Notes: generated from the sequence alone by a model not told the origin. DNA of 33,292 nt from Promethearchaeota archaeon (GCA_019058295.1 JAHPZI010000005.1:1-33292), one strand, 5' to 3'. Shown: positions 3,111-19,613, counted from the stretch's first letter. Numbers and translations are program-made.

Positions 3111-3114
3111 TTTT

Positions 3115-4437
3115 TTAACCTCCTTTTCTCGATGCTAATGTAAATTTCTCAAAGGTACCAACTTTATCTTTTACTTGAGCAAGCAATTCATCCTTTGATA
3201 AGCTTACATTGAAGCCTTTAATTGCCGTTTCAGCAAACCTTTCTGCTTGATTAACACCCCATTCTGTTTGGCCATAACAACCTGAACATGGAGCATTAAC
3301 CTTAACGCATAAGGCACCACAGCCAGCTCTAGTAACAGGACCCATACAAATATAGCCTTGTTCAATTAAACAATCCTCTAAATTTGGGAGTCCTTCATAA
3401 TCTCTCTTAACTTTAGTCATTGTTGATTTACTACCGATAATTCTATCACAAGTATCACAAACATTTGAGATGTCAATCAAATCGCGATTATCTCTTAAAA
3501 ATCCTAATACATTAGAAGCAATACTTACTGTATCAGGTGGTAAATTTGCTAATGGTGTTTCTGGTGTACCACGCTTTTTAACTTGTTTCAGAATATCCGC
3601 TGACAAATCAAAACCGGCCATTAGCGGTACGTTTAGAAATAATGATAGAAATTCGTTACTCGTCTTTTTATCACCAGAACTAGCTGAAGCGAGATTTTTG
3701 GTCATGTCATTTAATTTTGAAGCGCGTGCAGAGACTGTTTTTGCCGGTCCCATACATCCCACACAAGGATTTCCAGCATTCGGACATTTCAGCGAACAGC
3801 CGATACTGGTAATTGGTCCATAACATAATTTTCCTGCATCTAAAAGGCATCCCGATTGATTTAATGAACAATCATTACAAAAAGCAAGATCATTCATAGG
3901 GAATGGCTTTTGACCTAATAGAAATCCTACAGCACCGAAAATTTGTTCTGATCTTGGAGGACATCCTGCTATATAAGCATCAACCTTGATTATTTTATCA
4001 ACGTTAACAATCTTGTCCTCGAATCCAGGTACATGTTGGGTAGGTTCTCCACCACTTCCATCTGCGATACTTTCAACTTCAGAAAATTTACGTCTTACTA
4101 GTTCTTCCTTGCTCCATTGATTAGCTAATCCATGTACATTTCCATAACAAGAACAACTGCCAAATGCAATGATTATTTGACATTTTTCACGCATTAACTT
4201 TGTTCCTTCAACGTCTTGTTTAGTTCTAAGACTGCCTTCAATGAAACCAACGACAATTTCTCCGGGAGCTCTAGCTACCAATGAATCATATTTGAAATCA
4301 ACTACAGCTGGCCAATAGACAATTTCTAACGCTGGAAGTACCGGTAAAAGCTGTAAATGTAAATCTACCAAGCTTTGGTGGCATCCCCAGCAATCAGAGT
4401 TTTGCCAGAATGCTACTTTGACCATTTTTTTTTTCAC
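3115..4437 (-). CDS. vhuG: F420-non-reducing hydrogenase small subunit (VhuG/MvhG) with a duplicated C-terminal Fe-S module; likely start ATG at 4425
   Basis: DCWGC, EGS, AFGSCSCYG and GCPP proximal-cluster motifs plus two CL-x5-C-x-GP-x-T-xx-GC-xxx-C-x6-C-x-GC-x-G modules. Confidence 0.9.
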   Translation of the reverse strand: MKKKMVKVAFWQNSDCWGCHQSLVDLHLQLLPVLPALEIVYWPAVVDFKYDSLVARAPGEIVVGFIEGSLRTKQDVEGTKLMREKCQIIIAFGSCSCYGNVHGLANQWSKEELVRRKFSEVESIADGSGGEPTQHVPGFEDKIVNVDKIIKVDAYIAGCPPRSEQIFGAVGFLLGQKPFPMNDLAFCNDCSLNQSGCLLDAGKLCYGPITSIGCSLKCPNAGNPCVGCMGPAKTVSARASKLNDMTKNLASASSGDKKTSNEFLSLFLNVPLMAGFDLSADILKQVKKRGTPETPLANLPPDTVSIASNVLGFLRDNRDLIDISNVCDTCDRIIGSKSTMTKVKRDYEGLPNLEDCLIEQGYICMGPVTRAGCGALCVKVNAPCSGCYGQTEWGVNQAERFAETAIKGFNVSLSKDELLAQVKDKVGTFEKFTLASRKGG

Positions 4438-4569: not shown

Positions 4570-4599
4570 TGAATAATTATTCCTTTGAATAACTATTCA
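4570..4599. promoter_or_regulatory. Two adjacent copies of the TGAATAATTATTCA palindrome upstream of the vhu/hdr operon
   Basis: TGAATAATTATTCC at 4570-4583 and TGAATAACTATTCA at 4586-4599, one mismatch each. Confidence 0.7.
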
Positions 4600-4962
4600 A
4601 TTTATTTAATAAGTATTTTTTCCATTTCAATAAAATTAATGATTTTTATGATTATGATTTTATATTTTATTTAATTTAATTATATTTTTCAGCAATAAAT
4701 AAGAATTTTAATATATTTTATCGATTTAATTTATCTTTCTTTCTAACTGGAATATAATTTTATTGGTTTATCTGAAATAACTTATCTTCGTCAAGAATTA
4801 AGTTCTATTTCCGATCAATTTTTATGAATATTTATTATTAACATTAAAATTACGCTAATTTGTAATTTAAATTTGAAAAAAAAAGAAAAATTATTAAATA
4901 AAGTACTTATAAATTATTAATTTCGAATTCATTTTAAAACAAAAAATTGAATTTATAACTTA

Positions 4963-4976
4963 GGAATAATTATTCA
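4963..4976. promoter_or_regulatory. TGAATAATTATTCA-type operator upstream of the OsmC-like gene
   Basis: GGAATAATTATTCA, one mismatch to consensus; just downstream of TTTATAA (4952-4958). Confidence 0.65.
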
Positions 4977-5023
4977 CATTACATAAAAAATAAAATTAAA
5001 AATAAAAAAAAAAGGATTTAACT

Positions 5024-5530
5024 ATGCCAAGTTTTAAAGAAACATTTGATGCCATTAAGGCAGATTGGGCTGCTGGAGAAAAAAACTTCAATATTGAATG
5101 TGAAATGCTAGCTGACGGTATGCAAACCATGTGTACGATGGGTAATCCTGCAGGAGACGATTTTAAATTATTAATTGATGCTCCTGGCGGATTAAGCGGA
5201 ACAAATAAAGGACCATCTCCATTATTAGTAATTTTAGCCTCGATTGGCGCTTGTATTATTGCTGTTACTAAATTTTGGGCACTTATAATGGATATAAAGA
5301 TAGAAGAATTGAAAGTTTTTTCTCGAGGGCATATTAATTTAGGTGCTATTTTTGGAATTGATGATTCTAAATTACCAGGATATGATAAACTTGAACCTGT
5401 GATCAGAATCAAAGCCGATGCTCCAGAAGAAAAAATAAATGAATTAATGGATAAAGTCCTTACTCATTGTCCTGTAATTACAAATTTTGGCGGAGCATCC
5501 AAAATAACGCCTAAAGTTCAAATTAGGTAA
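5024..5530 (+). CDS. OsmC/Ohr family protein
   Basis: IDAPGGLSGTNKGPSP...LASIGAC and C-terminal HCPV motifs of the OsmC family. Confidence 0.85.
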   Translation: MPSFKETFDAIKADWAAGEKNFNIECEMLADGMQTMCTMGNPAGDDFKLLIDAPGGLSGTNKGPSPLLVILASIGACIIAVTKFWALIMDIKIEELKVFSRGHINLGAIFGIDDSKLPGYDKLEPVIRIKADAPEEKINELMDKVLTHCPVITNFGGASKITPKVQIR

Positions 5531-5744
5531 TACATTTCTATTAAAAATCTTCTACTTTTTTTTTTTAATATTTATTAGAGTAGAAAAGATTATTCAAAAA
5601 AAAATCTAACATTACGAAAGCTCTTGCTTCCTTTATTCTTTAAGGTTTCTAACTTATTATATTAATTTATTTATTAAAAATTGAATAATTTCTGAATACT
5701 TTTTCTAAAAAAAAAGGAGAAAAAAAATAATTGCTTTTTATTCA

Positions 5745-7292
5745 TTATCCAGTTTCTGTTTTTTCAATTATAAGAGATAGGGGTAATGAAAAGATTTGTT
5801 TCATTATAGGAACAAATGGATGTCCTTTTTTATGAACTGCCATACCAACAGCGGCTTCGGCTGCTTCTAATACCATTTCTGAAAGAGTTGGATGACTATG
5901 TATAGTAGACGTAATATCTTCTATAGTTAAGCCATGTTGCATGGCGAGTGCAATTTCGGCAATTAATTCTGAAGCTCCTGTACCAATACAAGATGCCCCA
6001 ATAATTTGAAGTGTGTGTTTATCAGCTAAAATCATTAAAAGACCGTCTTCTCCCATGCATTTTGCTTTACCAAGGGACTCATAGGGAAATTGGCCAACTA
6101 CTACATCTATGCCTAGCTTTCTTGCTTCTTTTCTCTTAAGCCCTACTGAACCGATGTTGGGGCTCGTGAAAATTGTACTAGGAATAACTCTATAATTTAC
6201 ACTCTCGGGATTTATATTGAACCCTTCAAGATTAGATAATGCATTTGCCACGGCAATATCACCCTCATGTCTAGCTACGTGCGCGAGCATTATACCTCCA
6301 TTTACATCGCCTATTGCATATATGCCTTTTATTGATGTTTCTAAAGTTTTTAGATCAACTTCAATTGCTCCTCTATTCATTTTAATTCCTAAGTTTTCTA
6401 AACCTAAGTTTCCAGATTCTTTTTTTCGACCAATAGCTACTAAACATAAATCACCCTCAAATGTAAATTTTTCTGCATTCTCAGTTTGGTCTCTTGGAAC
6501 AGAAGCATCACACGTTATTACTTTAACATGAGAACCTGTATTATTTATAGACAAAACGGCTTGTGAAGTTTCAATTGAAATTCCTCTAGAATTAAAAGTC
6601 TTTTGTAATTCCTTTATAATTAATGGCTCTTCTGTAGCAATAGGCGTAGGAAGCATTTCTAATATCGTTATTTTACTGCCAAAGCTTTCAAATATATCCG
6701 CAAACTCGCAGCCTATTACTCCGGCGCCAATAATAATTAATCGTTCTGGAATTGTAGTGAAAGTTGGATTTAAAATGTCATCACTCGTTAAAATTCTCTC
6801 GTGATCCACATTAAATTGTGGGATTAATGCTGGTGATGACCCAGTAGCAATTATTACTCTTTTAGCGATAATAATGTTGGATTCTTTTCCTTCAATTAAG
6901 ACCTTGAAACCTGAATCCGAGTTGCCTCCAAGAATTTTACCATACCCTATATAAACATCATTCTTCCAGGCTTTTTGTAAATTTTCAATTCCCTTGATTA
7001 ATTCTTGAACGATTTCATTTTTTCGTTCTACAACCTTTTTAAAGTCAACGTCAATATCCTTTACTGTTATTCCAAATTCTTCAGTATTCTTTACTTTTTC
7101 AAGAAGATGTGCAGAAGCCAATAGAGCTTTAGTAGGGATGCACCCAGTATTTAAACACGTTCCACCTAATTTGTCTTTTTCTATCAAGGCAACCTTAGCC
7201 CCATTTTGAGCAGCTCTAATAGCAGCATGATATCCTCCTGGACCCGCTCCTATTATTGCTATATCATATTGCTTCTCTTCTGACAATATCAT
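5745..7292 (-). CDS. lpdA: Dihydrolipoamide dehydrogenase
   Basis: GAGPGGY FAD motif, GGTCLNTGCIP redox disulfide, GAGVIG NAD motif, HSHPTLSE catalytic His. Confidence 0.93.
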   Translation of the reverse strand: MILSEEKQYDIAIIGAGPGGYHAAIRAAQNGAKVALIEKDKLGGTCLNTGCIPTKALLASAHLLEKVKNTEEFGITVKDIDVDFKKVVERKNEIVQELIKGIENLQKAWKNDVYIGYGKILGGNSDSGFKVLIEGKESNIIIAKRVIIATGSSPALIPQFNVDHERILTSDDILNPTFTTIPERLIIIGAGVIGCEFADIFESFGSKITILEMLPTPIATEEPLIIKELQKTFNSRGISIETSQAVLSINNTGSHVKVITCDASVPRDQTENAEKFTFEGDLCLVAIGRKKESGNLGLENLGIKMNRGAIEVDLKTLETSIKGIYAIGDVNGGIMLAHVARHEGDIAVANALSNLEGFNINPESVNYRVIPSTIFTSPNIGSVGLKRKEARKLGIDVVVGQFPYESLGKAKCMGEDGLLMILADKHTLQIIGASCIGTGASELIAEIALAMQHGLTIEDITSTIHSHPTLSEMVLEAAEAAVGMAVHKKGHPFVPIMKQIFSLPLSLIIEKTETG

Positions 7293-7336
7293 CCCTCATG
7301 TGATACGAAATTTTTATTTAAATTCTTAAAAAAAAT

Positions 7337-7945
7337 TCATAAAATTTTTGCTAGATCAACAAAGACCACATTAGATTTTACATTCTCTTCTTTTAAACGT
7401 CTCATGATCTCAATAAAAGTATTCTCTTCACCAATATGTACAAAACTCAATTCAGGATCATTACGATCTTCAATGAGTCTTAGCATCTTTTCAACTATGG
7501 CTTCTGATCTTACTTTTAAATTAATATATCGGTCTAATTCCTGAAGATCCTTTGAATATCGTTCAATCAATATTTTTAGTTCCTGAGCACTGCCCGTGTT
7601 CTTATTTGATAAAGTGTCGTAGGTGCCTAATAATTCGTCCAATTTATTTCTAATCTTGTCAATTTCTTCAGCAAAGTGCCCTTTAACGTAATATGGTAAT
7701 TCTGTTGTAAAATAGGGGATCTCATGTTCCTTCAATACTCGTGATAAATTAGTCTTATCAAATTCCCTTAAAGTCATATATCCTAAATCTATTGTAGCAA
7801 ACTTTATTGGCATATTAAGAAAATTTCCCACCATATCTTCTATGGTGTCATCCTTTACTTCAGCTTCGAGATTTCCCATCATATATATTGAGAAATTCTT
7901 ATCTACTAAAGATTCAAACATCATACTCACCATTTTTTTAACCAC
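7337..7945 (-). CDS. Hypothetical protein with a central coiled-coil-like region; likely start ATG at 7933
   Basis: 202-aa ORF with plausible composition; GAGGTG RBS precedes the ATG at 7933; no recognisable family. Confidence 0.7.
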   Translation of the reverse strand: MVKKMVSMMFESLVDKNFSIYMMGNLEAEVKDDTIEDMVGNFLNMPIKFATIDLGYMTLREFDKTNLSRVLKEHEIPYFTTELPYYVKGHFAEEIDKIRNKLDELLGTYDTLSNKNTGSAQELKILIERYSKDLQELDRYINLKVRSEAIVEKMLRLIEDRNDPELSFVHIGEENTFIEIMRRLKEENVKSNVVFVDLAKIL

Positions 7946-8066
7946 CTCTTAGTTTGTTTTTTTTATTTTTTATTTTTATTTTTAATAATTAATTTATTTA
8001 TTCCTAATATACTAATGTTCATTATCATATATAAAGTTGCTAGTGAATCGTCATTGTTCTTGTGGT

Positions 8067-8125
8067 GATCGATCAAAATGTAGGTAAATGATCGAGAAAA
8101 GATCAATATTGATGAGATCGTGATC
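8067..8125. other. Dense intergenic cluster of six GATC sites
   Basis: GATC at 8067, 8071, 8090, 8101, 8116 and 8122, plus one at 8196, in a divergent intergenic region. Confidence 0.5.
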
Positions 8126-8305
8126 CAATTCAAATATTTGAAAGTTTGCTCACAAAAAAAAGAAAAATAAAACTCTAATCTCAATTATCAGAACCGATCA
8201 TTTTTTCATTTTTTCTGAAAAATTCACTTCTTAAGAATTATTTTAGACTAAATTTGTATTAGAATTAAAATCATCTAAAACATAATTATAAATTAGGTGA
8301 TATGA

Positions 8306-10213
8306 TTGTCAAATGATTTACGTAAAGATATTATATCTTCATTGAAAAAATTTAGAAATAAGCAAGTTACCACAGAAAATGCAATTAAAACATTTATTAA
8401 GCCAGGAGATCGAATTTTTATAGATTCTGGTTGTTCAGAACCAATTGAACTTACTAAAAAACTTATTGAGTTTGGTCCACAGCTTCCAGATGTAGAGATT
8501 TTACACTTTCTTAGCTTGAGTGATTTAGATTATTATGAGACAGCTGGAGGGATCGAGGATCTCTTCAGACATAATGCATTTTTCATTGGAAAATCACTCC
8601 GAAAGTATATTAAAACCGGGTTTGCTGACTATACTCCAATGTTATTATCAGAAATTCCTCGAATCTTTCAGAGTGGACAGATGCATTTAGATACTGCGCT
8701 TATTCAAGTAAGTCCTCCCGATAAATATGGATATTGCAGTTTTGGGATTAATGTTGATATTATAAAATCAATAGCAGAAGCTGCGGATAAAGTTGTAGCG
8801 GAAATAAATCCAAAGATGCCCCGCACGCTTGGTGATTCTTTTATTCATATGGATGACATTGACTCATTTGTATGTGTTGAACACGATATTATAGAATATA
8901 GCTATGGAGATCCTGATGAGAATGCAAAAAAGATTGCTAAGTTTGTTGCTTCTCTGATAGAGGACGAATCTACAATTCAAATGGGTATAGGGCAAATTCC
9001 TAACGCTGTTACAAAAGAATTAATAGAAAAAAAGGATCTTGGCGTTCATAGTGAAGTTTTTTCAGATGGAATTGTTGACTTGGTTGAGAAGGGAGTAGTT
9101 ACTTGTAAAAAAAAAACTTTACATAAGGATAAAATCGTCTGTTCGTTTGTTATGGGTTCAAAAAAGCTCTATGATTTTGTAGATGATAATCCTATGTGTG
9201 AGTTTCATCCTGTAGATTATACAAATGATCCATATATTATTAGCCAAAATAAAAAACAGGTAGCTATTAATGCAGCTCTTACCGTAGATTTAACAGGACA
9301 AATAAATTCAGACTCATTGGGTCATAGATTCTATAGCGGGATTGGTGGTCAGGTAGATTTTATAAGAGGTGCTGGTCGAGCCCAAGATGGAAAACCAATA
9401 ATGGTGTTACCTAGCACAGCGACTTTGGAAGACGGAACTGTGGTTTCCCGAATTTTACCTCATTTAGAAGCTGGTTCTGGTGTCGTTGTTACGAGGGGGG
9501 ATGTCCATTATGTCATTACTGAATGGGGTATTGCTTATCTTTACGGGAAAAGCATAAGAGAAAGGATACTACAAATGATTAATATTGCTCATCCTGATTT
9601 CCGGGAAGAGTTATTAGATTATGCCAAGAAATGGAATTTAGTTTATTCAGATCAAAAGTTACCTGTGTCTATAGATGGCAGATTAAGTTTATATCCTGAA
9701 AAATACGAGACATTACTTAAACTAAAGAATGGAAAAACGATTAAAATTCGTCCTGTTAAACCAACTGATGAAAGGATGCTTCAAGAGCTTTATTATTCTT
9801 TGGATAAGGAAGATAGATATTTAAGATTTTTTTATCCTAGGAAAAATTTTCAACATAAAATGGTCCAACCATTAGTTAACATTGATTATTCATCTTCTAT
9901 GATCTTAGTTGGAGAATTTTTTAAAAATGGTGAGCAAAAAATTATTGCTACAGGTGGATTTTTTAAAACGATAAATCCATCAACAGCTGAACTGGCTTTT
10001 GTTGTTCATGAAGAATGGCGCAGAAACGGAATAACAAACTATTTATTGAATTATTTAGTTAGAATTGCTAGAGAACTCAATTATAAATTCTTTTCTGGCT
10101 CTATTCTTCTTGAAAATAAATCTATGCTCCATATTATAAATGCTCTAAAATATTCTAAAACCCAGAATATTGAGTCTGGAGTAGTCGAATTTACTTTAGA
10201 TATCTCAAAATAG
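8306..10213 (+). CDS. Acetyl-CoA hydrolase/4-hydroxybutyrate CoA-transferase family protein fused to a C-terminal GNAT domain
   Basis: IQMGIGQIP, LGVHSE, SGIGGQVDFIRGA and VITEWGIA motifs; C-terminal IRPVKPTD...AELAFVVHEEWRRNGI GNAT; TTG start after AGGTGA. Confidence 0.9.
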   Translation: MSNDLRKDIISSLKKFRNKQVTTENAIKTFIKPGDRIFIDSGCSEPIELTKKLIEFGPQLPDVEILHFLSLSDLDYYETAGGIEDLFRHNAFFIGKSLRKYIKTGFADYTPMLLSEIPRIFQSGQMHLDTALIQVSPPDKYGYCSFGINVDIIKSIAEAADKVVAEINPKMPRTLGDSFIHMDDIDSFVCVEHDIIEYSYGDPDENAKKIAKFVASLIEDESTIQMGIGQIPNAVTKELIEKKDLGVHSEVFSDGIVDLVEKGVVTCKKKTLHKDKIVCSFVMGSKKLYDFVDDNPMCEFHPVDYTNDPYIISQNKKQVAINAALTVDLTGQINSDSLGHRFYSGIGGQVDFIRGAGRAQDGKPIMVLPSTATLEDGTVVSRILPHLEAGSGVVVTRGDVHYVITEWGIAYLYGKSIRERILQMINIAHPDFREELLDYAKKWNLVYSDQKLPVSIDGRLSLYPEKYETLLKLKNGKTIKIRPVKPTDERMLQELYYSLDKEDRYLRFFYPRKNFQHKMVQPLVNIDYSSSMILVGEFFKNGEQKIIATGGFFKTINPSTAELAFVVHEEWRRNGITNYLLNYLVRIARELNYKFFSGSILLENKSMLHIINALKYSKTQNIESGVVEFTLDISK

Positions 10214-10227
10214 AAAAATTAAAGGTT

Positions 10228-11460
10228 TTAGTTGTTATTTATTTTAATAATCTCATTTAAATAAGTAAAATTACTGAGCTCAACATCCACAAAGTTGTTA
10301 TTAAAAATTAAGGAGGGGCCTTTTTTAAGAGATTCTTTTAAATAAATTTTATCTATTTTTTTTGAGATTAACCAATCAGAAACTAAGATTCCTTTTCTTT
10401 TTTCTTCGTGAGCAAATTTATTTACAATAATCTCAAATTTTAAGAGAGTTCCTTCTTTAAATTCTAAGATCCCAAAATAGGGACTTTCTCCGAAATGATT
10501 TGAAAGATTCGAATCTAAACCTCGATTATTTTCTAAAGGAATAGCAATTATAGTAATTTCTTTTTTCTGACTTTTGACAATTATTATAATTTTAAATATT
10601 GACGGAAACTTCTTTTTTATATCGGAACTCAACTTATTTTTTAAGTTATCCATCTGAGATAATGGAAAACTTTTGCTTAAATAAATTTCCAACTCTAAAA
10701 AAATATACCTGCCATAAGACCTTATTTCCATAGTTTCAATTTCTTTAACTTTCGGAGTTTTTTCAATTAAGTTATAAAGTTCTGTTCTGTTATCAAAATC
10801 AATAACAGCATCAAGTAATGTTTTTGTAGACGTAAGAAAAATCTCATATCCTCCTTTAATTATAAAGATTGCAATAATTAAACCTATTATGGAATCTAAA
10901 ATAGAGATTCTTAATAAAACAAAAATAAATCCAATAAGTACAGATAAAGAAATAAAAATATCAAACATTTTTTCCTGTGCTTCTGATTCAATAATAGGTG
11001 ACCTAGTTTGCTTACCGATTAATTTCAAATATAATGCTAAAATGAAGGAAGCTAACAATGAAATGATTAAGAAAAATAAAACTGTTAGCGAAAAATCAAC
11101 AATCTTTGGTTTTCCATTTATGAAATTAATTATATCTACAATAGATTGATTGATAATAAAATATGCGGTGAAAAAAATGAATAAAGAAATTATCAAACTT
11201 ATTATATTTTCTACTTTATAGTATCCATAGGGAAACTTTTCATTCGGTTTTTTTTTAGCAAAGTAAATCCCAATAAAGGAAGTAACACATATTACAATAT
11301 CAGTCATGTTGTCAAATGCATCTGCTTGGATTGCTAAACTGTTTGTTAAAATGCCAAAAATTAGTTTAATTATAAAAAAAATAGTGTTGAAAATTAAAAG
11401 TAAAAGATTTATAAAAACCGGTTGCTTGTAAAATTTTAATTTTTTATCTATTTCAGACAT
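10228..11460 (-). CDS. Cation diffusion facilitator (FieF-like) transporter fused to a C-terminal NifB/NifX-like domain
   Basis: Six TM segments, SLAIQADAFD and FPYGYYKVE CDF motifs, dimerisation domain, then IAIP...SNHFGESPYF NifB/X domain. Confidence 0.85.
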   Translation of the reverse strand: MSEIDKKLKFYKQPVFINLLLLIFNTIFFIIKLIFGILTNSLAIQADAFDNMTDIVICVTSFIGIYFAKKKPNEKFPYGYYKVENIISLIISLFIFFTAYFIINQSIVDIINFINGKPKIVDFSLTVLFFLIISLLASFILALYLKLIGKQTRSPIIESEAQEKMFDIFISLSVLIGFIFVLLRISILDSIIGLIIAIFIIKGGYEIFLTSTKTLLDAVIDFDNRTELYNLIEKTPKVKEIETMEIRSYGRYIFLELEIYLSKSFPLSQMDNLKNKLSSDIKKKFPSIFKIIIIVKSQKKEITIIAIPLENNRGLDSNLSNHFGESPYFGILEFKEGTLLKFEIIVNKFAHEEKRKGILVSDWLISKKIDKIYLKESLKKGPSLIFNNNFVDVELSNFTYLNEIIKINNN

Positions 11461-11516
11461 TACACTTCATATATTTTATTAATCTTAATTAAAGTTATTC
11501 ATAAAAATCATGATAT

Positions 11517-11939
11517 TTATTCAAGAGCAATAATCGGAATTATTGCATTATTAGGACAAGTAGAAAAACATTTTAAACAATTTTCACATAGATTCATGTT
11601 TTTTTTATTAAAGGTAATTAGTTCTTGACCAGTCTCTGGGTCAATACTAAGAGAAAATAAATTTTGAAAACAAAATTCATCTTCTAAACATTTTTTACAA
11701 AGATTACATCTCTCGTTATCAATTTTAAAATTAACTAATTGTCCTTCTTCCATTGAAATTACTTCAATAGCATTATGTTCGCAAACGTCTACACACTTAA
11801 GGCATCCTTTACATTTATTATAATCTACATACCTTAAGGAATTTCTAAAAAAAATTGCCTTTGCAGGACAGGAAAAGGAACATTTTTGACAGCGAATACA
11901 TAACTGCGGATTAATATTTATAGGAAATAATTTTTCCAT
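11517..11939 (-). CDS. Polyferredoxin-like protein with four [4Fe-4S] motifs
   Basis: CIRCQKCSFSCP, CKGCLKCVDVCE, CNLCKKCLEDEFC, CENCLKCFSTCP. Confidence 0.85.
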   Translation of the reverse strand: MEKLFPININPQLCIRCQKCSFSCPAKAIFFRNSLRYVDYNKCKGCLKCVDVCEHNAIEVISMEEGQLVNFKIDNERCNLCKKCLEDEFCFQNLFSLSIDPETGQELITFNKKNMNLCENCLKCFSTCPNNAIIPIIALE

Positions 11940-12099
11940 TTTTATTCATAAAAATTCAATGATGACTCGTAGAAAATTGTTTTAAAAATAAAGATTAAAA
12001 AGAAATAATTAAATTTTTACTTTTCTATTTTTTTTATAAATAAACTATAATCTATAGGTTTTTTTATAATTAAATTAGATTGCGGATCAAATTTACAAA

Positions 12100-12309
12100 A
12101 TGAATAATAAAAAAAGAATATGTAAATGGTATATTGTCTGTCCAATCAAGTATTTCGTGGATCAAGGAAAGCTTGATTCAAAATGGGTTAAGGATTATTG
12201 CTTAATTGGAAATAAAGAATGTATTCGATACCAAATGGAAGAAAGTGGTGAGTACCATCCTGATAATATGCTTCCTAACGGTGAAATTAAGAAAAATCTT
12301 CATTATTAA
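12100..12309 (+). CDS. Small Cys-rich hypothetical protein
   Basis: CKWYIVCP...WVKDYC...CIRYQMEE..HPDNMLPNG pattern resembles small proteins seen next to NifB/X clusters in anaerobes. Confidence 0.7.
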   Translation: MNNKKRICKWYIVCPIKYFVDQGKLDSKWVKDYCLIGNKECIRYQMEESGEYHPDNMLPNGEIKKNLHY

Positions 12310-12395
12310 GAATTCTAAATTATAAGGATAACATTTATTTAAAATATAAAATTAGAATAACAAAGGAATTCAAGCTTTTTATATAAAAAGGTTTA

Positions 12396-12417
12396 TTTAT
12401 GAATAATTATTCATAAA
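12396..12417. promoter_or_regulatory. Perfect 22-bp palindromic operator TTTATGAATAATTATTCATAAA
   Basis: Core at 12400-12413, about 15 nt downstream of TATA-like TTTATATA (12378-12385), upstream of the NifB/X and DUF134 genes. Confidence 0.75.
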
Positions 12418-12479
12418 ATTTAAATGCTTAAATTTATTCTTAAAATATGAATATAAAAATAAATAGGTGTATAATAAAA

Positions 12480-12887
12480 TTGAAAGTAGCTATTAGTATG
12501 GAATCAGGAAAGGTTTGTGCTCATTTTGGAAGAGCTCCAGAGTTTCTTTTTGTTACAATTGAAGATAATAAAGTAGTTAAAAAGGAAATACTTCCCAATC
12601 CAGGGCATACTGTAGGAAGTATTCCCCAATTTGTAAATGAACAAGGGGCGAATTTTATGATTGCAGGGGGAATGGGACCTCGAGCAGTCCAATTTTTTAA
12701 CCAATATGGGATTGAAGTAATTGTGGGAGTTGTTGGCAGTATTGATGATGTTATTGAAAAAATATTAAATGGAACATTAGAGGGCGGAGAGAGTCTATGT
12801 TCTCCTGGAGTAGGTAAGGGTTTTGGAGTAGAAAAAATCCATACTGACGCTGATGATAATAATGATCATCATCATCATCATCATTAA
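12480..12887 (+). CDS. NifB/NifX family cluster-binding protein with a His6 C-terminus
   Basis: KVAI...VCAHFGRAPEF...GGMGPRA motifs; TTG start at 12480 after AGGTG RBS (ORF track extends to 12447). Confidence 0.88.
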   Translation: MKVAISMESGKVCAHFGRAPEFLFVTIEDNKVVKKEILPNPGHTVGSIPQFVNEQGANFMIAGGMGPRAVQFFNQYGIEVIVGVVGSIDDVIEKILNGTLEGGESLCSPGVGKGFGVEKIHTDADDNNDHHHHHH

Positions 12888-13015
12888 AAGAAATAACTCA
12901 TTTATCAAACTTAATTAATTCCCCTTAAAAATTTAAATTCTATAGATCTTGAGAAATGTTTTTTCAAAAAAAATTCTTAAAAATAACACATTCAAAAACT
13001 GCTAGATGAATCAAA

Positions 13016-13435
13016 ATGGGAAGAAGAACTCGTCGAAGATGGGTTGGTCAACCACCAGATAATTTTTATTTCTCTCGCGAGAACCCATCAACGGACGCCA
13101 ATATTATTCTAACTGTGGCAGAATTTGAAGCTCTTCGTCTTAAACATTATATGAATTTGAATCAAGAACAGGCATCCGAATGGATGGGAATAAGTCAACC
13201 AACATTTTCTCGTGTCATAGAAAGAGCTCATCAAAAACTTACTCGAGCTTTAATTGAAGGAAAAACTATTAAGGTATTCGGCGGGGAGGTTGATTATAAA
13301 ATAACTTTCATAGGGTATGGATGTGCGGATTGCGACAGTGAATGGGAGGATAGATCCGCATCGAGAGATAAAAAAGTTAAATGTATTAACTGTGATTCGG
13401 ATAATGTTTATTATCTAATACGAGAACCTATCTGA
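13016..13435 (+). CDS. DUF134 (UPF0251) HTH DNA-binding protein with C-terminal Zn-ribbon
   Basis: MGRRTRRR, LTVAEFEALRL, QEQASEWMGISQPTFSR HTH, ALIEGK; C-terminal CADC...CINC. Confidence 0.88.
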   Translation: MGRRTRRRWVGQPPDNFYFSRENPSTDANIILTVAEFEALRLKHYMNLNQEQASEWMGISQPTFSRVIERAHQKLTRALIEGKTIKVFGGEVDYKITFIGYGCADCDSEWEDRSASRDKKVKCINCDSDNVYYLIREPI

Positions 13436-13559
13436 ATATACTTTTTTTCTTATCACAGAGCCAGAATTAACTAAATAATGAGAATTAATTCAGAATAATA
13501 GTCCATAGACTAGAATTTATTTTTTTTAATATTTTTAGTTAACTAGAGATCTAAAAAAT

Positions 13560-14486
13560 TTATCTACTATTCCATAAAGCATTTTTGAGATTTTTATAAA
13601 TAGCCTTAATAGCTAAACTCGCATCTGAGTTTGGTGCGAAATCCACTACAGCCTCTGCATAGGACATTGCTTTAGGTATTGCCAGATCAAAAGGAATTTT
13701 TCCTAAAATAGAAAATCCTGTATTATCAATATACTCTTTAAAATCATCTTGAAAAGGACTTTTTAAATCAAATTTATTGATTACTATACCAAAAGGAATT
13801 TCAAATTGTTGTACTACTTCGATTGCTCTTACAAGATCATGTAAACCGGAGGGAGTTGGCTCAGTTATTGTAATAATGTAATCTAATCCAGAAACCGTGG
13901 CAATTACAGGGCACCCTATGCCAGGAGGGCCATCTATTAAAATTAAATTGGAATATTCAAATTCATCGATTTGTTTAGCATATTCTTTGACATCTGAAAC
14001 TAATTTTCCAGAGGTCGTACTCCCAAGCCTAGTTTTACCATATATTAGTGGTAATGTGATTTTTGTTTTATAAGAGATTATTTCGCCACTTTTCACAGTA
14101 TTTACTTCAAATGCATGCTCAGGACATAAAACTTTACAGGCTCCACAGCCTTCACATGCTAAATAATCGATAATTGGAATAGAATTTTCTTCGTCCCATT
14201 TTAACGCATTGAATTCACAGAAGTGATCATCGATACATTGCTTGCAATGAACACATTTATCCTCTAAGAAAGTAGCTTTTAGTGTTGTAAAAGTATCTAT
14301 TGACTTTATCTTCCCATTTGAATCTGCAGGAAGGATTAAAGCTAAATTAGGGGCATCTACATCGCAATCTAAGATAATTGCATTTATTTCATTATCAGTT
14401 CTTATAATACTTGCTAGTGCTGCTGTTAATGATGTTTTTCCAACACCACCTTTACCAGATATGATTCCTATTGCTTTTCTTTTCAT
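13560..14486 (-). CDS. MinD/ParA-superfamily P-loop ATPase with inserted 2x[4Fe-4S] ferredoxin domain
   Basis: SGKGGVGKT, DCDVDAPN, CVHCKQC and CEGCGACKVLCP, DGPPGIGCP, TEPTPSGLHDL. Confidence 0.9.
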   Translation of the reverse strand: MKRKAIGIISGKGGVGKTSLTAALASIIRTDNEINAIILDCDVDAPNLALILPADSNGKIKSIDTFTTLKATFLEDKCVHCKQCIDDHFCEFNALKWDEENSIPIIDYLACEGCGACKVLCPEHAFEVNTVKSGEIISYKTKITLPLIYGKTRLGSTTSGKLVSDVKEYAKQIDEFEYSNLILIDGPPGIGCPVIATVSGLDYIITITEPTPSGLHDLVRAIEVVQQFEIPFGIVINKFDLKSPFQDDFKEYIDNTGFSILGKIPFDLAIPKAMSYAEAVVDFAPNSDASLAIKAIYKNLKNALWNSR

Positions 14487-14501
14487 TTTATTCCTATTAA
14501 T

Positions 14502-15422
14502 TTAAGTGTTATTTGTATCTATCCATTCAATAAGATTTTTAAATATTTCTTGAAATGCTTTATAACCCTCGCCACTTTTGAATTCGCTATTCTCGTTCAT
14601 TAACGGTATTCCTTGACAGTAAGAATTGACAATATCATCATCTAAAGGAATATCACCTATAATTTTTATATTTTTCTCTTCCAATTCCTTTAAGAATTGA
14701 TCTCTGAAACCTAACAATGATGATCTATTAACAATTGCTCGACAATCTTTATTTATTAATTCAATCAACTCAATTATCCTTATTAAATCTAATTTTCCAA
14801 ATCTCGTGGGCTCTGTAACAGGTACAACAAAATCAGCTTTGTTAATTAATAATTCAACATCACAATGAGCGCCAGGGGCGGTATCTAAAATTATATAGTC
14901 ATATTTAGTTTGTTCCGTTTTGATGATCTCGTCTAACTTCTCAAGGAGAGCTTCAACCACGGCGGCAGAGCGCGCTTCAGATGGTTTTAATTCACCGATT
15001 AAGAGAGAGATGCCATTTTTGATTGTTGAGTATGTCCAACCAATGGTTTTTTGCCCTGCTTTAATAGCCTCTACCGGGCAGATTTTATAACATAATTTAC
15101 AACCAGAACAAACCGCTAAAATTGGTATCGGATAAGCATCTTTTATATGTAGTAAGGCATGTGGAGCGCAATTTTCTGCGCATAAACCACATTTAGTACA
15201 TTTTTCTTCAATAATTTCTGGTTTGAAAAAAGGAACTGATTTTTGATTTTCAAGTTCTCCGCCTAATAATAAATACGTGTTTGGATTTTCGACGTCACCA
15301 TCAATAAGCAAAACTTTTTTTCCAATATTTTTAAACATGGTCGCTAAATTAACTGCTACCAAGGTTTTGCCAGTTCCGCCTTTACCTCCCGTAACACAAA
15401 TTACTACAGGTTTTTTTGACAT
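14502..15422 (-). CDS. Second MinD/ParA-superfamily P-loop ATPase with inserted 2x[4Fe-4S] domain
   Basis: GGKGGTGKT, DGDVENPN, CTKCGLCAENC, CSGCKLCYKICP, DTAPGAHC, TEPTRFG. Confidence 0.9.
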   Translation of the reverse strand: MSKKPVVICVTGGKGGTGKTLVAVNLATMFKNIGKKVLLIDGDVENPNTYLLLGGELENQKSVPFFKPEIIEEKCTKCGLCAENCAPHALLHIKDAYPIPILAVCSGCKLCYKICPVEAIKAGQKTIGWTYSTIKNGISLLIGELKPSEARSAAVVEALLEKLDEIIKTEQTKYDYIILDTAPGAHCDVELLINKADFVVPVTEPTRFGKLDLIRIIELIELINKDCRAIVNRSSLLGFRDQFLKELEEKNIKIIGDIPLDDDIVNSYCQGIPLMNENSEFKSGEGYKAFQEIFKNLIEWIDTNNT

Positions 15423-15462
15423 TATTTATTTAACATTATTTCCTTCAATTTAAAATGATGAA

Positions 15463-15933
15463 TTAAAAATTACGGCCTCTGCCCATTCCTCCTCCACCAC
15501 CCATTCCACGACCTCCGCCCATTCCTCGTCCGCCGCCCATTCCGCCACCACCCATTCCAAAATGAGCGCCGACATTTGAACCGCCCATTTCTTGTAATTT
15601 ACCCTCTATGAATAATTCAACAGCTTGTTTTACTGTTAGCTGTTGAGGTGGCGCTTGATAAATCTTTAAATTCAAGGCCATTAATGATTGGGCAGCATTA
15701 GGACCTAAATTTCCAGCAATTACTATTGTAGCTCCATGATTTCCTATAGTTTGAGCTGCTTGGATTCCTGCACCACCCATAGCACCTGCAGCCATATTAG
15801 ATACAGCTTTAACTTCTTTTATAGATTTATCTTCAATTGTTACAAAAGTGAATGAGTCACAACGACCAAATCTGGGATTCACCATTTCATTCAATCCACC
15901 ATTTCCAAAAGATGGAACTGCTACTATAACCAT
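15463..15933 (-). CDS. NifB/NifX family protein with Gly/Met/Arg-rich tail
   Basis: PRFGRC, GGAGIQAAQ and GNLGPNA motifs; tail GMGGGRGMGGGRGMGGGGGMGRGR. Confidence 0.88.
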   Translation of the reverse strand: MVIVAVPSFGNGGLNEMVNPRFGRCDSFTFVTIEDKSIKEVKAVSNMAAGAMGGAGIQAAQTIGNHGATIVIAGNLGPNAAQSLMALNLKIYQAPPQQLTVKQAVELFIEGKLQEMGGSNVGAHFGMGGGGMGGGRGMGGGRGMGGGGGMGRGRNF

Positions 15934-15988
15934 ATTTATATTTACCTCTTTATGTTTTTTTTTTTATTATTTGATAAGTTTTTTAAAT

Positions 15989-16006
15989 TATGAATAATTA
16001 TTCATA
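15989..16006. promoter_or_regulatory. Perfect palindromic operator TATGAATAATTATTCATA
   Basis: Core 15991-16004 in the divergent NifX/Mrp intergenic region; minus-strand TATA-like TTTTATAG near 16033-16040. Confidence 0.75.
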
Positions 16007-16197
16007 TTGTCTATGTAATAAAAAAATTAATTCTATAAAAGTTTTCTCATATTAAAAAAAAAATATTTAGAGAAAAACATATAATTTTTATAAATTATTA
16101 AAAACCGATTTAAGAGTATTATTAAACATTAAATTAAATAGAGAAGATATTAATTTTAATAAAAAATAAGGAAAAAAAAATTAGAATAAGTGATGAT

Positions 16198-17070
16198 ATG
16201 ACTGAAGATGATGTACCAGATATTAATTTGAAAGAGACTGTAGAACAAGGTAAAAAAGAAGCCATGGATCTACGTATGGAAGAGATAAATAAAAATATGG
16301 CAAAAATTAAACATAAAATTGTTGTGATCTCCGGAAAGGGAGGTGTTGGAAAAACTACAGTCGCTGTCAACCTTGCCATGAGTTTAGCAAGTGTAGGATT
16401 AAGAGTAGGGCTATTAGATGTTGACATTACGGGGCCTAATGTAGCTAAAATGTTGGGAATTAGCCCCGAATTAAAGCCAAGAGTTGATCCAGAAGCCAAG
16501 AAATTTTATCCAATTAATGGTCCCTTGAATATAAAAGTCATGAGTATGGCTTTCCTGATCATGGGGCAAGATGATCCAGTTATTTGGAGAGGCCCAATGA
16601 AAATGGGAGCTGTAAGACAATTTCTTGGCGATGCTGAATGGGGTGAACTTGATTATTTAGTATGTGATTTACCACCTGGAACTTCTGATGAGACTTTAGA
16701 CATTCTCCAACTTATCCCCGATGAAAATGTGATTGTTGTTTCTACTCCTCAAGAAGTTGCTCTTATGGATGCTCGAAAAACAATAAAAATGTCTCAAATA
16801 ATGGAAAGAAATGTTCTTGGGATTATTGAAAACATGTCTGGATTTGACTGTCCTCATTGTGGTGAACATATCGATCTTTATCCTCCAGGAGGAGCTGAAA
16901 AGGCTGCGAAGGATTTCAATATTCAATTATTGGGTAAAATACCTTTTGAAGTTGAAATAGGAATTCAAGGAGATCAAGGTTTACCTTTTATAATTAAATA
17001 TTCTGATAGTAAAAGTGCGAAAGCTTTCAAAAAGGCTGTAAAAAATATTCAAGAAATATTAGAAAAATAA
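16198..17070 (+). CDS. mrp: Mrp/Nbp35 (ApbC) family Fe-S cluster carrier ATPase
   Basis: SGKGGVGKTT, DVDITGP, VIWRGPMK, DLPPGTSD and ENMSGFDCPHC motifs. Confidence 0.93.
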   Translation: MTEDDVPDINLKETVEQGKKEAMDLRMEEINKNMAKIKHKIVVISGKGGVGKTTVAVNLAMSLASVGLRVGLLDVDITGPNVAKMLGISPELKPRVDPEAKKFYPINGPLNIKVMSMAFLIMGQDDPVIWRGPMKMGAVRQFLGDAEWGELDYLVCDLPPGTSDETLDILQLIPDENVIVVSTPQEVALMDARKTIKMSQIMERNVLGIIENMSGFDCPHCGEHIDLYPPGGAEKAAKDFNIQLLGKIPFEVEIGIQGDQGLPFIIKYSDSKSAKAFKKAVKNIQEILEK

Positions 17071-17130
17071 TTCATAATTTTAAATTGACATTTAAAGTTA
17101 TATTTAATAAAAAAACTAATTTAAGATAAC

Positions 17131-17577
17131 ATGGCCGAAGAGCATTTTGATGAATTTGTAAAAAATCTTCAAAAAGAAATTATAAATAAGGAATTAGAAC
17201 AATATAATCAATACGTTGTTAAATTATTCCATAATCCGAAAAATTGGGGTAAACCCCCTGATGATAAAATAAGTATATGGCATGCTTATGAGGGACCTTG
17301 TGGGGATACGATGCAGTTCTTTTTAAAAATTAATAATAATAATAATATAATCGAAAAAGCAAACTTTATTACAGACGGTTGTGGAGCAACAGTAGCAGCA
17401 GGAAGCCAAACAACTCTTTTGATTGAGGGCAAATCTTTAGATTTTGCTGAAAAATTAAAACCAGAAGATATTGAAAATGCCTTAGGGGGACTACCAGAAG
17501 ATCATAAACATTGCGCAGAATTAGCTGCGAGAACTTTAAAACGGTCGATTGAGAAATTCAAATATACAAAGGGATAG
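17131..17577 (+). CDS. IscU/NifU N-terminal-like Fe-S scaffold protein
   Basis: NPKNWG, GPCGD, TDGCGAT and LPEDHKHCA: three scaffold Cys. Confidence 0.88.
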   Translation: MAEEHFDEFVKNLQKEIINKELEQYNQYVVKLFHNPKNWGKPPDDKISIWHAYEGPCGDTMQFFLKINNNNNIIEKANFITDGCGATVAAGSQTTLLIEGKSLDFAEKLKPEDIENALGGLPEDHKHCAELAARTLKRSIEKFKYTKG

Positions 17578-17667
17578 TTATGATTATATTATTCTTTTAT
17601 TTCTTGCGTGAATAAGAACTATTAAATTATTTTTTTTAATACATTAATATTATTTTTAGAAGCTTAT

Positions 17668-18603
17668 ATGAAATATATCTATGGGCCTGTACCGAGTAGG
17701 AGATTGGGTAGATCTTTGGGAATTGATCCTATTCCCTCAAAAACTTGTAATTTCCAATGTATATATTGTCAAATAGGAAAAACGACTTTTTTTACGAATG
17801 AACGGAGAAATTATTATCCGAAGGAAGAAATTATTGCTGAAATGAGAGAAGCTATCGAACAAAATGAAAAAAAAATAGATTATATAACTTTTGTTGGCAG
17901 TGGTGAACCCACATTATATAAAGATTTAGAAGAATTGATTTTAAAAGCAAAAGAGTTATCAAAAAACCCCGTTTGCGTAATTACAAATGGTGCATTATTG
18001 TATAATTCCGAGGTTAGTAAAGCCCTTATGCTTGCTGATGTTGTTTTACCTAGCCTAGATGCGGGAGATAGTCAGCTTTTTATCAAAATTAATCGACCTC
18101 ACCCTTCTCTTAAATATAATGACATTATTCAAGGGATAATTGAATTTAAAAGAAAATTTAAAGGTAAGTTATGGTTAGAAATAATGATTATAAAGGGCGT
18201 TAACGATTCAAATGAAAATTTATTAAAAATTAAAGAAAAAATTGATTTAATAAAACCAGATAGAATTGATATTAACGTTCCAACAAGACCTCCTACAGAA
18301 AATTGGGTTAAAATTCCAGATAAAAGCATTATTCCTCTTCTTAAGGAAATTTTTGGTGATATTTATGATATAACATTTCCAGAAAAGGGAAAATTCGATT
18401 ACTATTCCTTAGATTTTGAAAAAGAAATCTTATCAATAATAGAAAGACATCCTATGAGACAAGATCAAATAATTGAGACTTTTCATTCAGGTAATTTTAA
18501 ACAAGAAGAAATTTTAAAGCGATTAAAAGCACTTGAATATCAGAAAATAATTACAAAGATAATCTATAATAATGAAATCTTTTGGAAATTAGATCAAGGG
18601 TAA
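17668..18603 (+). CDS. Radical SAM protein of unknown function (YGPVPSRRLGRSLG family)
   Basis: CNFQCIYC motif, GSGEPTL, ITNG. Confidence 0.85.
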   Translation: MKYIYGPVPSRRLGRSLGIDPIPSKTCNFQCIYCQIGKTTFFTNERRNYYPKEEIIAEMREAIEQNEKKIDYITFVGSGEPTLYKDLEELILKAKELSKNPVCVITNGALLYNSEVSKALMLADVVLPSLDAGDSQLFIKINRPHPSLKYNDIIQGIIEFKRKFKGKLWLEIMIIKGVNDSNENLLKIKEKIDLIKPDRIDINVPTRPPTENWVKIPDKSIIPLLKEIFGDIYDITFPEKGKFDYYSLDFEKEILSIIERHPMRQDQIIETFHSGNFKQEEILKRLKALEYQKIITKIIYNNEIFWKLDQG

Positions 18604-18616
18604 ATTTATTTGTGTA

Positions 18617-19003
18617 TTAATAATGAAATTCAAGAATAAGACTTTCTAGGGCATCAGATATCTCTGGAGTTATATAATGCTCAATTTTACAACATAAATT
18701 TTTCACTTGATCATTGTCTTTTAATTTTAAAACATGTACAAAAAAATCAAATAAACTATTATAGTTTTTAACAATGCTAAGGGCAATTTTTTTTCCCTTT
18801 TTAGTTAATCTTAAAGATTTATTAGGCTTCCAATCTATTAGATCTTTCGCTTTTAACTTATACAACATATTTGTAACTGAAGATGGGTTAACTTTTAATA
18901 TATTTGAAATTTCTGAATTAGATACCCAGCCACCTTTATTCTCTTTTGAAATTAAATATATGGCTTTTATATAATCTTCATAACTCTTATTTAAGTGTTT
19001 CAT
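18617..19003 (-). CDS. DtxR/MntR family metal-dependent transcriptional repressor (short form)
   Basis: EDYIKAIY, VNPSSVTNML HTH, LTKKG, CKIEH metal-binding motif. Confidence 0.9.
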   Translation of the reverse strand: MKHLNKSYEDYIKAIYLISKENKGGWVSNSEISNILKVNPSSVTNMLYKLKAKDLIDWKPNKSLRLTKKGKKIALSIVKNYNSLFDFFVHVLKLKDNDQVKNLCCKIEHYITPEISDALESLILEFHY

Positions 19004-19049
19004 TTTATTTCAAATTTCCAATGGGACTTTTAAATTAAAAAAAAAAAAA

Positions 19050-19445
19050 TTATTCAGTTTTTTCTAATTCTTCAATTCTTTTAGAAATATCGCCTAATGC
19101 GGTTTTAATTCCATCCATTTCAGACTCTAAATATTGCTTTTCTTGCTTAAGTATATTTAATTGCGCTTCAGGAGTAGTCGGAGGTGGATAAACGGGGGGA
19201 GGGACTAAATTTGATCCGTATAATGGAGCACCATACCCCCAGAAACCTCCAAACCTTCTGCCGCCACCTCTACCCCATCCGACGCCGCGCCCATATCCCA
19301 TTCCTCGACCTCCTCCAAATCCTCTTCCAAGACCCATACCTGGTCCTTTAGTATATCCTGGTGAATTATAACCTGCGCAATATCCTAAACCTCTACCAGT
19401 CATAGAACCTTGACCCCAAGGTCCCGTACCATCTCCTCTAGGCAT
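19050..19445 (-). CDS. DUF5320-family protein (Gly/Arg-rich with C-terminal coiled coil)
   Basis: MPRGDGTGPWGQGSMTGRGLGYCAG signature; ATG at 19445 after GAGGTG RBS. Confidence 0.88.
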   Translation of the reverse strand: MPRGDGTGPWGQGSMTGRGLGYCAGYNSPGYTKGPGMGLGRGFGGGRGMGYGRGVGWGRGGGRRFGGFWGYGAPLYGSNLVPPPVYPPPTTPEAQLNILKQEKQYLESEMDGIKTALGDISKRIEELEKTE

Positions 19446-19497
19446 TTTTTTTACCACCTCGTTTTAAAATTTAGGTTTTTTATATTTTATATTATAG

Positions 19498-19613
19498 TGA
19501 ATGATTATTCATAATACTAATAGTTTTCTTCATATAAAAATATAACTATTTTGGTTTCTGAATGATTATTCATAATACTAATAGTTTTTTTCATATAAAA
19601 ATATAACTATTTT
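19498..19613. repeat. 55-bp direct repeat (54/55 identical, period 61) duplicating an operator plus TATA module
   Basis: Copies at 19498-19552 and 19559-19613; each starts with TGAATGATTATTCA and contains CATATAAAAA (minus-strand TTTTTATATG). Confidence 0.9.

Follow-up and report, generated by a model that had tools for sequence, protein, structure and literature searches.

A conserved palindromic operator in a Promethearchaeota genome and comparative evidence pointing to the DUF134 protein as its regulator

The organisation of a candidate regulon was investigated in a stretch of 33,292 nucleotides from a Promethearchaeota archaeon of the Loki type, an Asgard lineage (GCA_019058295.1, JAHPZI010000005.1:1-33292), and the whole of this stretch is referred to as the window. 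Along it lie an operon for a Vhu-type hydrogenase with Hdr-like subunits, the gene of an OsmC-like peroxiredoxin, a gene pair for a NifX/NifB-like protein (NifXa) and a DUF134 protein, two divergent operons that encode NifXb with two MinD-type ATPases on one side and Mrp, IscU and a radical SAM protein on the other, and an operon for DUF5320 and a short DtxR-type regulator (DtxR-A). The palindrome TGAATAATTATTCA, which is 14 bases long, recurs in front of these genes and is analysed here as the putative operator of the DUF134 protein. The features are collected in Table 1; the gene labels of an earlier note on this DNA, made from the sequence alone, agreed with the Pfam assignments.

Seven copies with at most one mismatch are present in the window, perfect at 12400 and 15991 and with one mismatch at 4570, 4586, 4963, 19498 and 19559, exactly as the earlier note had listed them, whereas dinucleotide-preserving shuffles averaged 0.10 and never exceeded 1. 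All seven lie outside open reading frames (ORFs) of at least 90 aa, which bears out its remark that no full copy occurs inside genes of the window. The core of the palindrome is TGAAT-N4-ATTCA and its full 20-bp form is TTATGAATAATTATTCATAA; past about 20 bp the flanks of the window copies are dissimilar. Each of the two units of a 61-bp tandem duplication, 98% identical to one another, is headed by one copy (19498 and 19559), a TATA-like element, TTTATTTA, adjoins the 12400 operator on its 5' side, and no small ORF was found between the 4570/4586 sites and the hydrogenase gene. The assembly that contains the window as contig C5 (3.2 Mb in 30 contigs, 79% complete, 31% G+C, coded G000 and called the source genome below) was scanned as a whole and held 2 perfect copies and 11 copies with at most one mismatch, so that 7 of the 11 are concentrated in one 15-kb stretch. 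Three of the four copies outside the window fall within ORFs; the fourth, at C10:80597, stands before a 1-Cys peroxiredoxin gene and has a weaker partner site 67 bp away.

Table 1. Operator copies and neighbouring genes in the window, with the roles proposed in this study
Feature	Position	Strand	Assignment	Remark
Hydrogenase small subunit, NiFe(Se) large subunit, HdrC-like, HdrB-like operon	93..4437	-	Pfam	candidate target
Two adjoining operator copies	4570-4583, 4586-4599			centres 16 bp apart; 133-149 nt upstream of hydrogenase small-subunit start 4437
Operator copy	4963..4976			47 nt upstream of OsmC-like gene
OsmC-like peroxiredoxin	5024..5530	+	Pfam PF02566	target
Perfect operator	12400..12413			28.4 bits, the matrix maximum; 33 nt upstream of NifX-like gene heading NifX-DUF134 pair
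NifX/NifB-like NifXa	12447..12887	+	PF02579	target
DUF134 (UPF0251), 139 aa	13016..13435	+	Pfam	proposed regulator
Two MinD/ParA ATPases, inserted 4Fe-4S ferredoxin motifs	14502-15422, 13560-14486	-	CbiA/ParA and Fer4, Pfam	target operon with NifXb
NifX-like NifXb	15463-15933	-	PF02579	target; ORP-type operon 13560..15933
Perfect operator	15991..16004			26.6 bits; divergent region, NifXb 57 nt away, Mrp 193 nt away
Mrp/NBP35, IscU (NifU_N), radical SAM operon	16198..18603	+	Pfam	probable target
DtxR-A, short DtxR/MntR-type regulator	18617-19003	-	Pfam	target and rival regulator
DUF5320	19050-19457	-	Pfam	heads conserved target operon 18617..19457
61-bp tandem duplication	19498..19613			two operator copies, 19498-19511 and 19559-19572; upstream of DUF5320

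Conservation was evaluated with a 20-bp weight matrix trained on 49 sites, all of which came from other genomes. The matrix placed the window sites at the top of the source genome (28.4, 26.6, 24.8, 24.2, 18.7 and 18.1 bits), and the next matches were C21:194817 (19.1 bits) and then the peroxiredoxin site. At a threshold of 18 bits or more, seven matches were obtained (six in the window and C21:194817) against none for a reversed control matrix. Across 80 Promethearchaeota DUF134 loci (588 kb), sites of at least 14 bits numbered 138, against 1 for the reversed matrix. A check proposed in the earlier note, conservation upstream of orthologues, was also carried out: the palindrome recurs before the orthologous NifX-MinD-MinD, NifX/DUF134, Mrp-IscU, DUF5320(-DtxR) and OsmC operons within the same genus, family and order, in line with its claim of one shared operator. 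Single relatives carry the palindrome also before genes for thioredoxins, a thioredoxin-reductase-like protein, FMN reductase, FeoAB and a small ferredoxin. On this comparative footing the palindrome is established as a real and widely conserved switch site.

The link to the hydrogenase operon, also claimed from the window alone, was upheld in relatives. Small-subunit orthologues of at least 68% identity have a site of at least 14 bits 130-260 nt upstream in 9 of 14 cases in the family, and none of the paralogues of 47-50% identity has such a site. The paired operator copies are found at the same offset in G005 and G007, and a single strong site lies upstream of the orthologue in G002, G004, G001, G017, G011 and G009. 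Sites precede the OsmC orthologues of G001, G004, G013 and G007. The exact start of NifXa could be placed in five of the 80 loci, and in four of these five the start codon comes about 33 nt after the end of the core; for NifXb, 31 related loci have 37-58 nt between the end of the core and the start. The divergent NifXb/Mrp position is kept in most Promethearchaeota loci, and the distance to the Mrp start codon, 193 nt here, is smaller in relatives (median 77 nt). The 1-Cys peroxiredoxin was rejected as a conserved member: among 21 genomes its sites occur only in the source genome and in G005, with weak ones in three others, and it is considered specific to this species and its nearest relative.

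Further sites were observed beside these operons. DUF5320 and some other targets have site pairs or triplets 58-62 bp apart in many genomes (loci including L036, L037, L038, L048, L051, L056, L059, L060 and L106), a spacing that may reflect cooperative binding on one face of the DNA or phasing by archaeal histones, around which DNA winds in multiples of about 30 bp. The C21:194817 match (L002:4321-4334) lies 26 nt upstream of a gene for a 337-aa protein of the metallo-beta-lactamase fold, and G007 has a site before a gene for a 228-aa ODP-type protein of the same fold (L056:6061); the distances in the two species range from 18 to 26 nt, and these genes are possible further members of the regulon with an oxygen- or redox-related role. 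In family f2, perfect sites occur about 200 nt upstream of feoA-feoB (L064:3013 in G026, L067:3040 in G019), and another perfect site (L065:2956, L068:3020) precedes, by about 30 nt, a ferredoxin-like ORF of some 54 aa that is unannotated and lies between two convergent genes.

Several lines of comparison couple the palindrome to the DUF134 gene, which is single-copy in the source genome. Where DUF134 lies apart from the cluster, the site is still directly upstream of it in four genomes (G012, G013, G014 and G017). The DUF134 proteins of four distant families (f14, f21, f24 and f7) are 30-38% identical to the window protein and come from loci of 33-48% G+C, and the palindrome stands 1-40 nt before their start codons in 6/6, 3/3, 1/2 and 1/1 loci, respectively. 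In these families it takes the form TTATGAATATATATTCATAA or TGAATAATTATTCA and heads a DUF134-NifX-NifX-MinD-MinD operon with no DtxR gene nearby. The DUF134 site is the only 16-mer match at two or fewer mismatches in three f14 genomes and the only perfect 16-mer match in one f21 genome, and family f9 retains the half-sites around a spacer that contains G+C, TGAATC(A/T)(A/G)GATTCA. Five genomes had been scored as lacking DUF134, and these could have spoken against the pairing; four of them also lack the MinD-ferredoxin genes, and the fifth has, at the head of the operon, a weak DUF134 homologue that a perfect site precedes by 40 nt. Another Loki-type genome presumably pairs the form TGAATAWWTATTCA with DUF134. 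In an f24 locus (L144), the variant ATGAACATCTGTTCAT, with the half-site TGAAC in place of TGAAT, was observed about 74 nt upstream of DUF134; this may be operator drift, which could pair with changes in the recognition helix.

A motif-first analysis started from the palindrome itself: metagenome contigs were scanned for the exact 20-mer with no gene as reference, which yielded 80 loci (L267-L346) whose taxa are unassigned; those with enough flank span 29-58% G+C. A DUF134 homologue was present in 50 of the 58 loci with at least 450 nt on both sides, DUF134 and/or DUF5320 genes directed away from the site were present in 71 of 80, and the start codons mostly lie 0 +/- 3 nt from the palindrome. 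Taken across genomes, the physical coupling of the site to DUF134 is demonstrated, and the comparative evidence points to DUF134 as the best-supported regulator of the palindrome, thereby strengthening the proposal of the earlier note that this protein is the factor. With DUF134, DUF5320 is the most frequent gene directly downstream of the palindrome. It encodes Gly/Arg-rich repeats and a C-terminal coiled coil and precedes DUF134 in 19 of the 80 motif-first loci; DUF5320 may be a partner of the regulator and not just a target.

The DUF134 protein of the window belongs to Pfam PF02001 (73.8 bits against a cut-off of 27, residues 3-93), and close homologues are named 'DUF134 domain-containing protein' in their source records. 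It is composed of an Arg-rich N-terminal arm, a three-helix helix-turn-helix (HTH) domain of the sigma70-region-4/DeoR type whose recognition helix reads SQPTFSR, and, in the C-terminal 45 residues, a beta ribbon of the pattern CxxC-x16-CxxC. No variation was seen among 53 homologues at residues G2, R3, S60-R66, C103, C106, C123 and C126, and seven Asgard families retain the recognition helix ISQPTF(S/H/N)R, the basic arm and the CxxC...CxxC pattern. The four-cysteine ribbon is possibly a sensor, and it is the only candidate for one. Full-text literature searches for DUF134, UPF0251, COG1342, PF02001 and DUF5320 found no functional study, so the earlier description of the regulon as undescribed held in the literature searched.

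A fold search of the PDB gave no match to the whole DUF134 protein at E <=0.001, and the HTH and the ribbon matched separately. The HTH matched sigma70 region 4 domains, and the best match was the DNA-binding domain of Bacillus subtilis DeoR (7BHY; phmmer E 0.007, profile E 1.3e-4; Foldseek probability 1.00, root-mean-square deviation 0.7 A over 40 residues, about 38% identity over 38-40 residues). DeoR is a SorC-family protein of the subclass with a sigma70-region-4-type HTH and acts at the dra-nupC-pdp operator (PMC11229326; PDB 7BHY, 8R7Y), in which the left operator, ATTGAACAAAATTTCAAT, is bound by a dimer of DNA-binding domains (PMC11229326). The left operator and the palindrome have a common TGAA-N6-TTCA layout (PMC11229326), which offers independent support that a DUF134 dimer can read the palindrome. 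The recognition helices read SRPTVSR in DeoR and SQPTFSR in DUF134, and the promoter-overlapping operator of the DeoR repressor is a further likeness to what is proposed for DUF134. DeoR differs in its large sugar-phosphate effector domain and in binding as a tetramer to a 39-bp composite operator, whereas DUF134 has 139 aa with a basic N-terminal arm and a four-cysteine ribbon and also occurs in archaea. DUF134 is thus not a member of the SorC/DeoR family, since it shares the HTH alone, is only 139 aa long and ends in the C-terminal four-cysteine ribbon in place of the effector domain of about 250 aa.

A second comparison is offered by EnfR (TON_1525, Tfx family) of Thermococcus onnurineus, which represses a hydrogen-producing gene cluster (PMC10570040; PDB 8HNO) and binds a pseudo-palindrome that spans -44 to +3, with an operator of 36 bp (PMC10570040). 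Like DUF134 as modelled here, EnfR is a small archaeal dimer with a sigma70-region-4-type HTH and an N-terminal loop that adds DNA contact; unlike DUF134, it has an alpha+beta 'note-head' as its C-terminal domain, a different domain order with the HTH at the very N-terminus, and no cysteine ribbon. Only the HTH aligns (48 columns), and no Pfam or sequence match places DUF134 in the Tfx family. EnfR is best regarded as a functional analogue from another family.

Promoter geometry was examined for the direction of control. Archaeal repressors that bind between the TATA box and the start exclude RNA polymerase. In G+C-richer relatives (f14 and f21), the palindrome is preceded at 0-3 nt by a TATA box (TTTAAAT or TTTATTTATA) and followed at 1-10 nt by the start codon of DUF134. 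With the TATA box only upstream and the start codon so close, the transcript would be leaderless or nearly so and the site would cover its start. Distances to the start codon in the source genome are 27-58 nt for the proximal sites and 133-193 nt for the hydrogenase and Mrp sites. The TATA-then-site geometry of a repressor, proposed earlier for the window itself, is therefore unambiguous in the G+C-richer relatives; the local sites are compatible with it and not decisive. The palindrome is quite probably the operator of the DUF134 protein at 13016-13435, with the protein acting as an autoregulated dimeric repressor whose site covers the transcription start; binding, dimerisation and repression by DUF134 are what we infer from sequence comparison. 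Provided that DUF134 is the reader, we favour repression as the direction of control, though only modestly.

The alternative that DUF134 acts mainly as an activator or as a dual regulator, for example by recruiting TFB/TBP beside the TATA box, appears rather unlikely. Several sites of the source genome have ATTTAAAT just downstream, and the operator would be proximal to the TFB recognition element (BRE) if this were the true TATA box; the analogous Desulfovibrio orp operons are also under positive control (PMC8359166). The G+C-richer relatives argue against activation, with their sole TATA-like element upstream and the start codon 1-10 nt after the site.

Another possible reader is DtxR-A, which would bind the palindrome as a metal-loaded dimer and govern an iron or manganese regulon, with DUF134 as a mere target. 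Archaeal repressors of the DtxR family (MDR1-type) have palindromic operators that overlap promoters and regulate their own genes. DtxR-A lies behind two sites here, sites are upstream of it in all seven further genomes examined, and in one genome it stands alone, 37 nt behind a 27-bit site. It keeps Cys/Glu/His at positions that we take to be the metal ligands of DtxR, and iron-related genes are among the regulon members, with feoAB behind a perfect site in family f2. Against this, genes of the DtxR-A type (at least 56% identity) were found only in part of family f1, and the motif is kept in genomes that have only B-type or longer DtxR genes, none of them adjoining a site: G016 (100% complete), G012 (98%), G018 and family f2, including the single-contig G026. 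No DtxR homologue occurs in the f14, f21 and f7 loci where the palindrome abuts DUF134, and the motif-first loci include DtxR in only about 4 of 80 cases compared with the 71 that have DUF134 and/or DUF5320. The site therefore does not follow a cognate DtxR gene as an operator of that family would, and these co-occurrence tests disfavour DtxR as the reader of the palindrome, making control by DtxR-A improbable. The second DtxR paralogue of the source genome (DtxR-B, contig C17) was rejected as the regulator, since none of its seven loci has a site.

An unlinked factor, for instance of the ArsR, TrmB or Lrp type, might read the site and have DUF134 and DUF5320 as its most conserved targets; we consider this about as improbable as control by DtxR-A. 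It would suit a link between DUF134 and the site that consists of co-localisation and homology, and the many stand-alone DUF134 genes of genus g2 without a strong site. However, a genome-unique site at the DUF134 start codon is a classic sign of a self-regulated local factor, and for conservation over lineages of 29-58% G+C an unlinked factor would have to be just as conserved. The matrix scan gave no site at the local ArsR gene, and no Fur-family gene was found in the 79%-complete genome.

A short dispersed repeat, or A+T-rich palindromes arisen by chance, with no regulatory role, as the 31% G+C of the genome and the origin of two copies in the tandem duplication might suggest, is hardly credible given seven copies against 0.1 expected, flanks that are dissimilar beyond about 20 bp, conservation at orthologous promoters in genomes of up to 58% G+C, and 138 matches against 1 for the reversed matrix. 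A miniature inverted-repeat transposable element or other dispersed repeat was rejected on the unconserved flanks. Known boxes also fitted poorly. The Fur box has a 7-1-7 structure, TGATAAT-N-ATTATCA, and a Fur/PerR-type box was rejected on its different spacing and on the lack of a match to PF01475 in the 79%-complete genome. The Rex operator is TGAA-N4-TTCA, and a Rex-type site was dropped as the spacing here is TGAA-N6-TTCA. A bidirectional core promoter (BRE-TATA-BRE, as the central TATATAT of relatives might indicate) was rejected because the start codon in f14 and f21 follows 1-10 nt after the site with a separate TATA box upstream.

Several observations weigh against DUF134 as the reader and repressor. 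The A+T-rich source genome has TATA-like strings on both sides of most sites, so its local geometry is ambiguous, and the hydrogenase and Mrp sites lie 130-190 nt from their start codons. About 30 of the 80 Promethearchaeota DUF134 genes lie apart from the cluster without a strong site within 4 kb, and genus g2 shows weak or no genome-wide enrichment of the motif, with many stand-alone DUF134 genes there having no strong site. Autoregulation alone cannot separate DUF134 from DtxR-A, since DtxR-A is always preceded by a site as well. Training sites for the matrix had been picked for their likeness to the consensus, a choice that affects neither the reversed-matrix control nor the motif-first test. 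The related genomes are non-independent samples, and all of the support is sequence comparison; the related-locus search of genome contigs for DUF134 returned only close Asgard loci, and spread across domains was touched only through the metagenome scan.

If DUF134 is the regulator, the following mechanism may be proposed. The dimer would place its two HTHs on the two TGAA half-sites of the palindrome, and with the operator between the TATA box and the transcription start, binding would block recruitment of RNA polymerase. DUF134 would thus repress the operon that encodes it, together with a group of further promoters. The regulon would comprise a single DUF134-NifX-NifX-MinD-MinD operon in distant Asgard lineages, and in the Lokiarchaeial lineage it would have grown to at least five promoter regions of the window, namely those of the Vhu-type hydrogenase/Hdr operon, OsmC, NifX-DUF134, NifX-MinD-MinD together with Mrp-IscU-radical SAM, and DUF5320-DtxR, with at least two further putative targets elsewhere, the 1-Cys peroxiredoxin and the metallo-beta-lactamase-fold protein. 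Speculatively, the ribbon would sense redox, iron or Fe-S status and free the repressor from DNA when Fe-S proteins need repair. Such a signal is suggested by the targets, which include Fe-S carriers and a scaffold, ORP-type proteins and OsmC, and by the thioredoxin-system and feoAB genes of relatives.

The target set invites comparison with the orange-protein (ORP) cluster of Desulfovibrio vulgaris Hildenborough, which depends on sigma54 and on OrpR, an Fe-S redox sensor, and is switched off by oxidation (PMC8359166, PMC6345978), and which comprises NifX/NifB-like small proteins and two MinD-like ATPases with two 4Fe-4S motifs each (PMC6345978). The two systems are alike in their NifX/NifB-like proteins, two MinD ATPases, an Mrp/NBP35 carrier, divergent operons and one dedicated regulator. 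The NifX/NifB-like proteins and the two MinD-Fer4 ATPases of the window correspond to ORP members by domain composition and not by direct comparison with Desulfovibrio sequences. The Mrp gene (16198-17070) encodes only a PF10609 domain without a fused NifX-like domain, unlike the two-domain MrpORP. OrpR, which is unrelated to DUF134, belongs to the enhancer-binding proteins, has an Fe-S PAS domain and acts on sigma54 promoters; the archaeon has TATA-box promoters with the palindrome instead of sigma54/OrpR control, although an OrpR homologue was not searched for. The OrpR regulon consists of the two orp operons only, whereas the candidate regulon here would also take in hydrogenase/Hdr, OsmC, DUF5320-DtxR and others.

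Neighbouring genes of the window complete this picture of the locus. A Cys-rich ORF of 69 aa (12100-12309, +) without a Pfam match is a conserved, unnamed member of the cluster, and its homologues adjoin NifX/DUF134 genes in about 30 of the 80 Promethearchaeota loci. A cation diffusion facilitator (CDF) transporter (10228-11460, -), beside a poly-ferredoxin and next to the regulon without a site of its own, has a C-terminal NifX-like domain (PF02579, E 1.7e-4) under the Pfam cut-off. Two feoA genes and feoB adjoin the DUF5320-DtxR operon, with an ArsR-type gene further on, and a weak copy with two mismatches at 20191 precedes feoA-feoB.

A broader reading is that DUF134 is a redox, iron or Fe-S sensor through its cysteine ribbon, raised in Lokiarchaeia from the private repressor of an ORP operon to a master switch that couples hydrogen metabolism (Vhu hydrogenase/Hdr), Fe-S supply, DtxR-A as a metal regulator of the second tier, and antioxidant enzymes; this we put forward tentatively, as a doubtful but possible extension. 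If it were true, this would be the first defined stress or energy regulon in the archaeal relatives of eukaryotes, and a function would be given to a DUF family spread over anaerobic archaea and probably bacteria.

DUF134/UPF0251 is an old and widespread family with no assigned function, and the definition of an operator and a target set makes it directly testable. To our knowledge, almost nothing is known of gene regulation in Asgard archaea; the system described here would provide a concrete Asgard regulon with a readable promoter architecture of TATA box, operator and leaderless start. The regulon would connect the puzzling NifX/MinD proteins of the ORP type with Fe-S assembly, with defence against peroxide and with the Vhu/Hdr hydrogen module, thereby suggesting a role for these proteins and a redox or iron stress response in the strictly anaerobic, hydrogen-dependent Lokiarchaeia.

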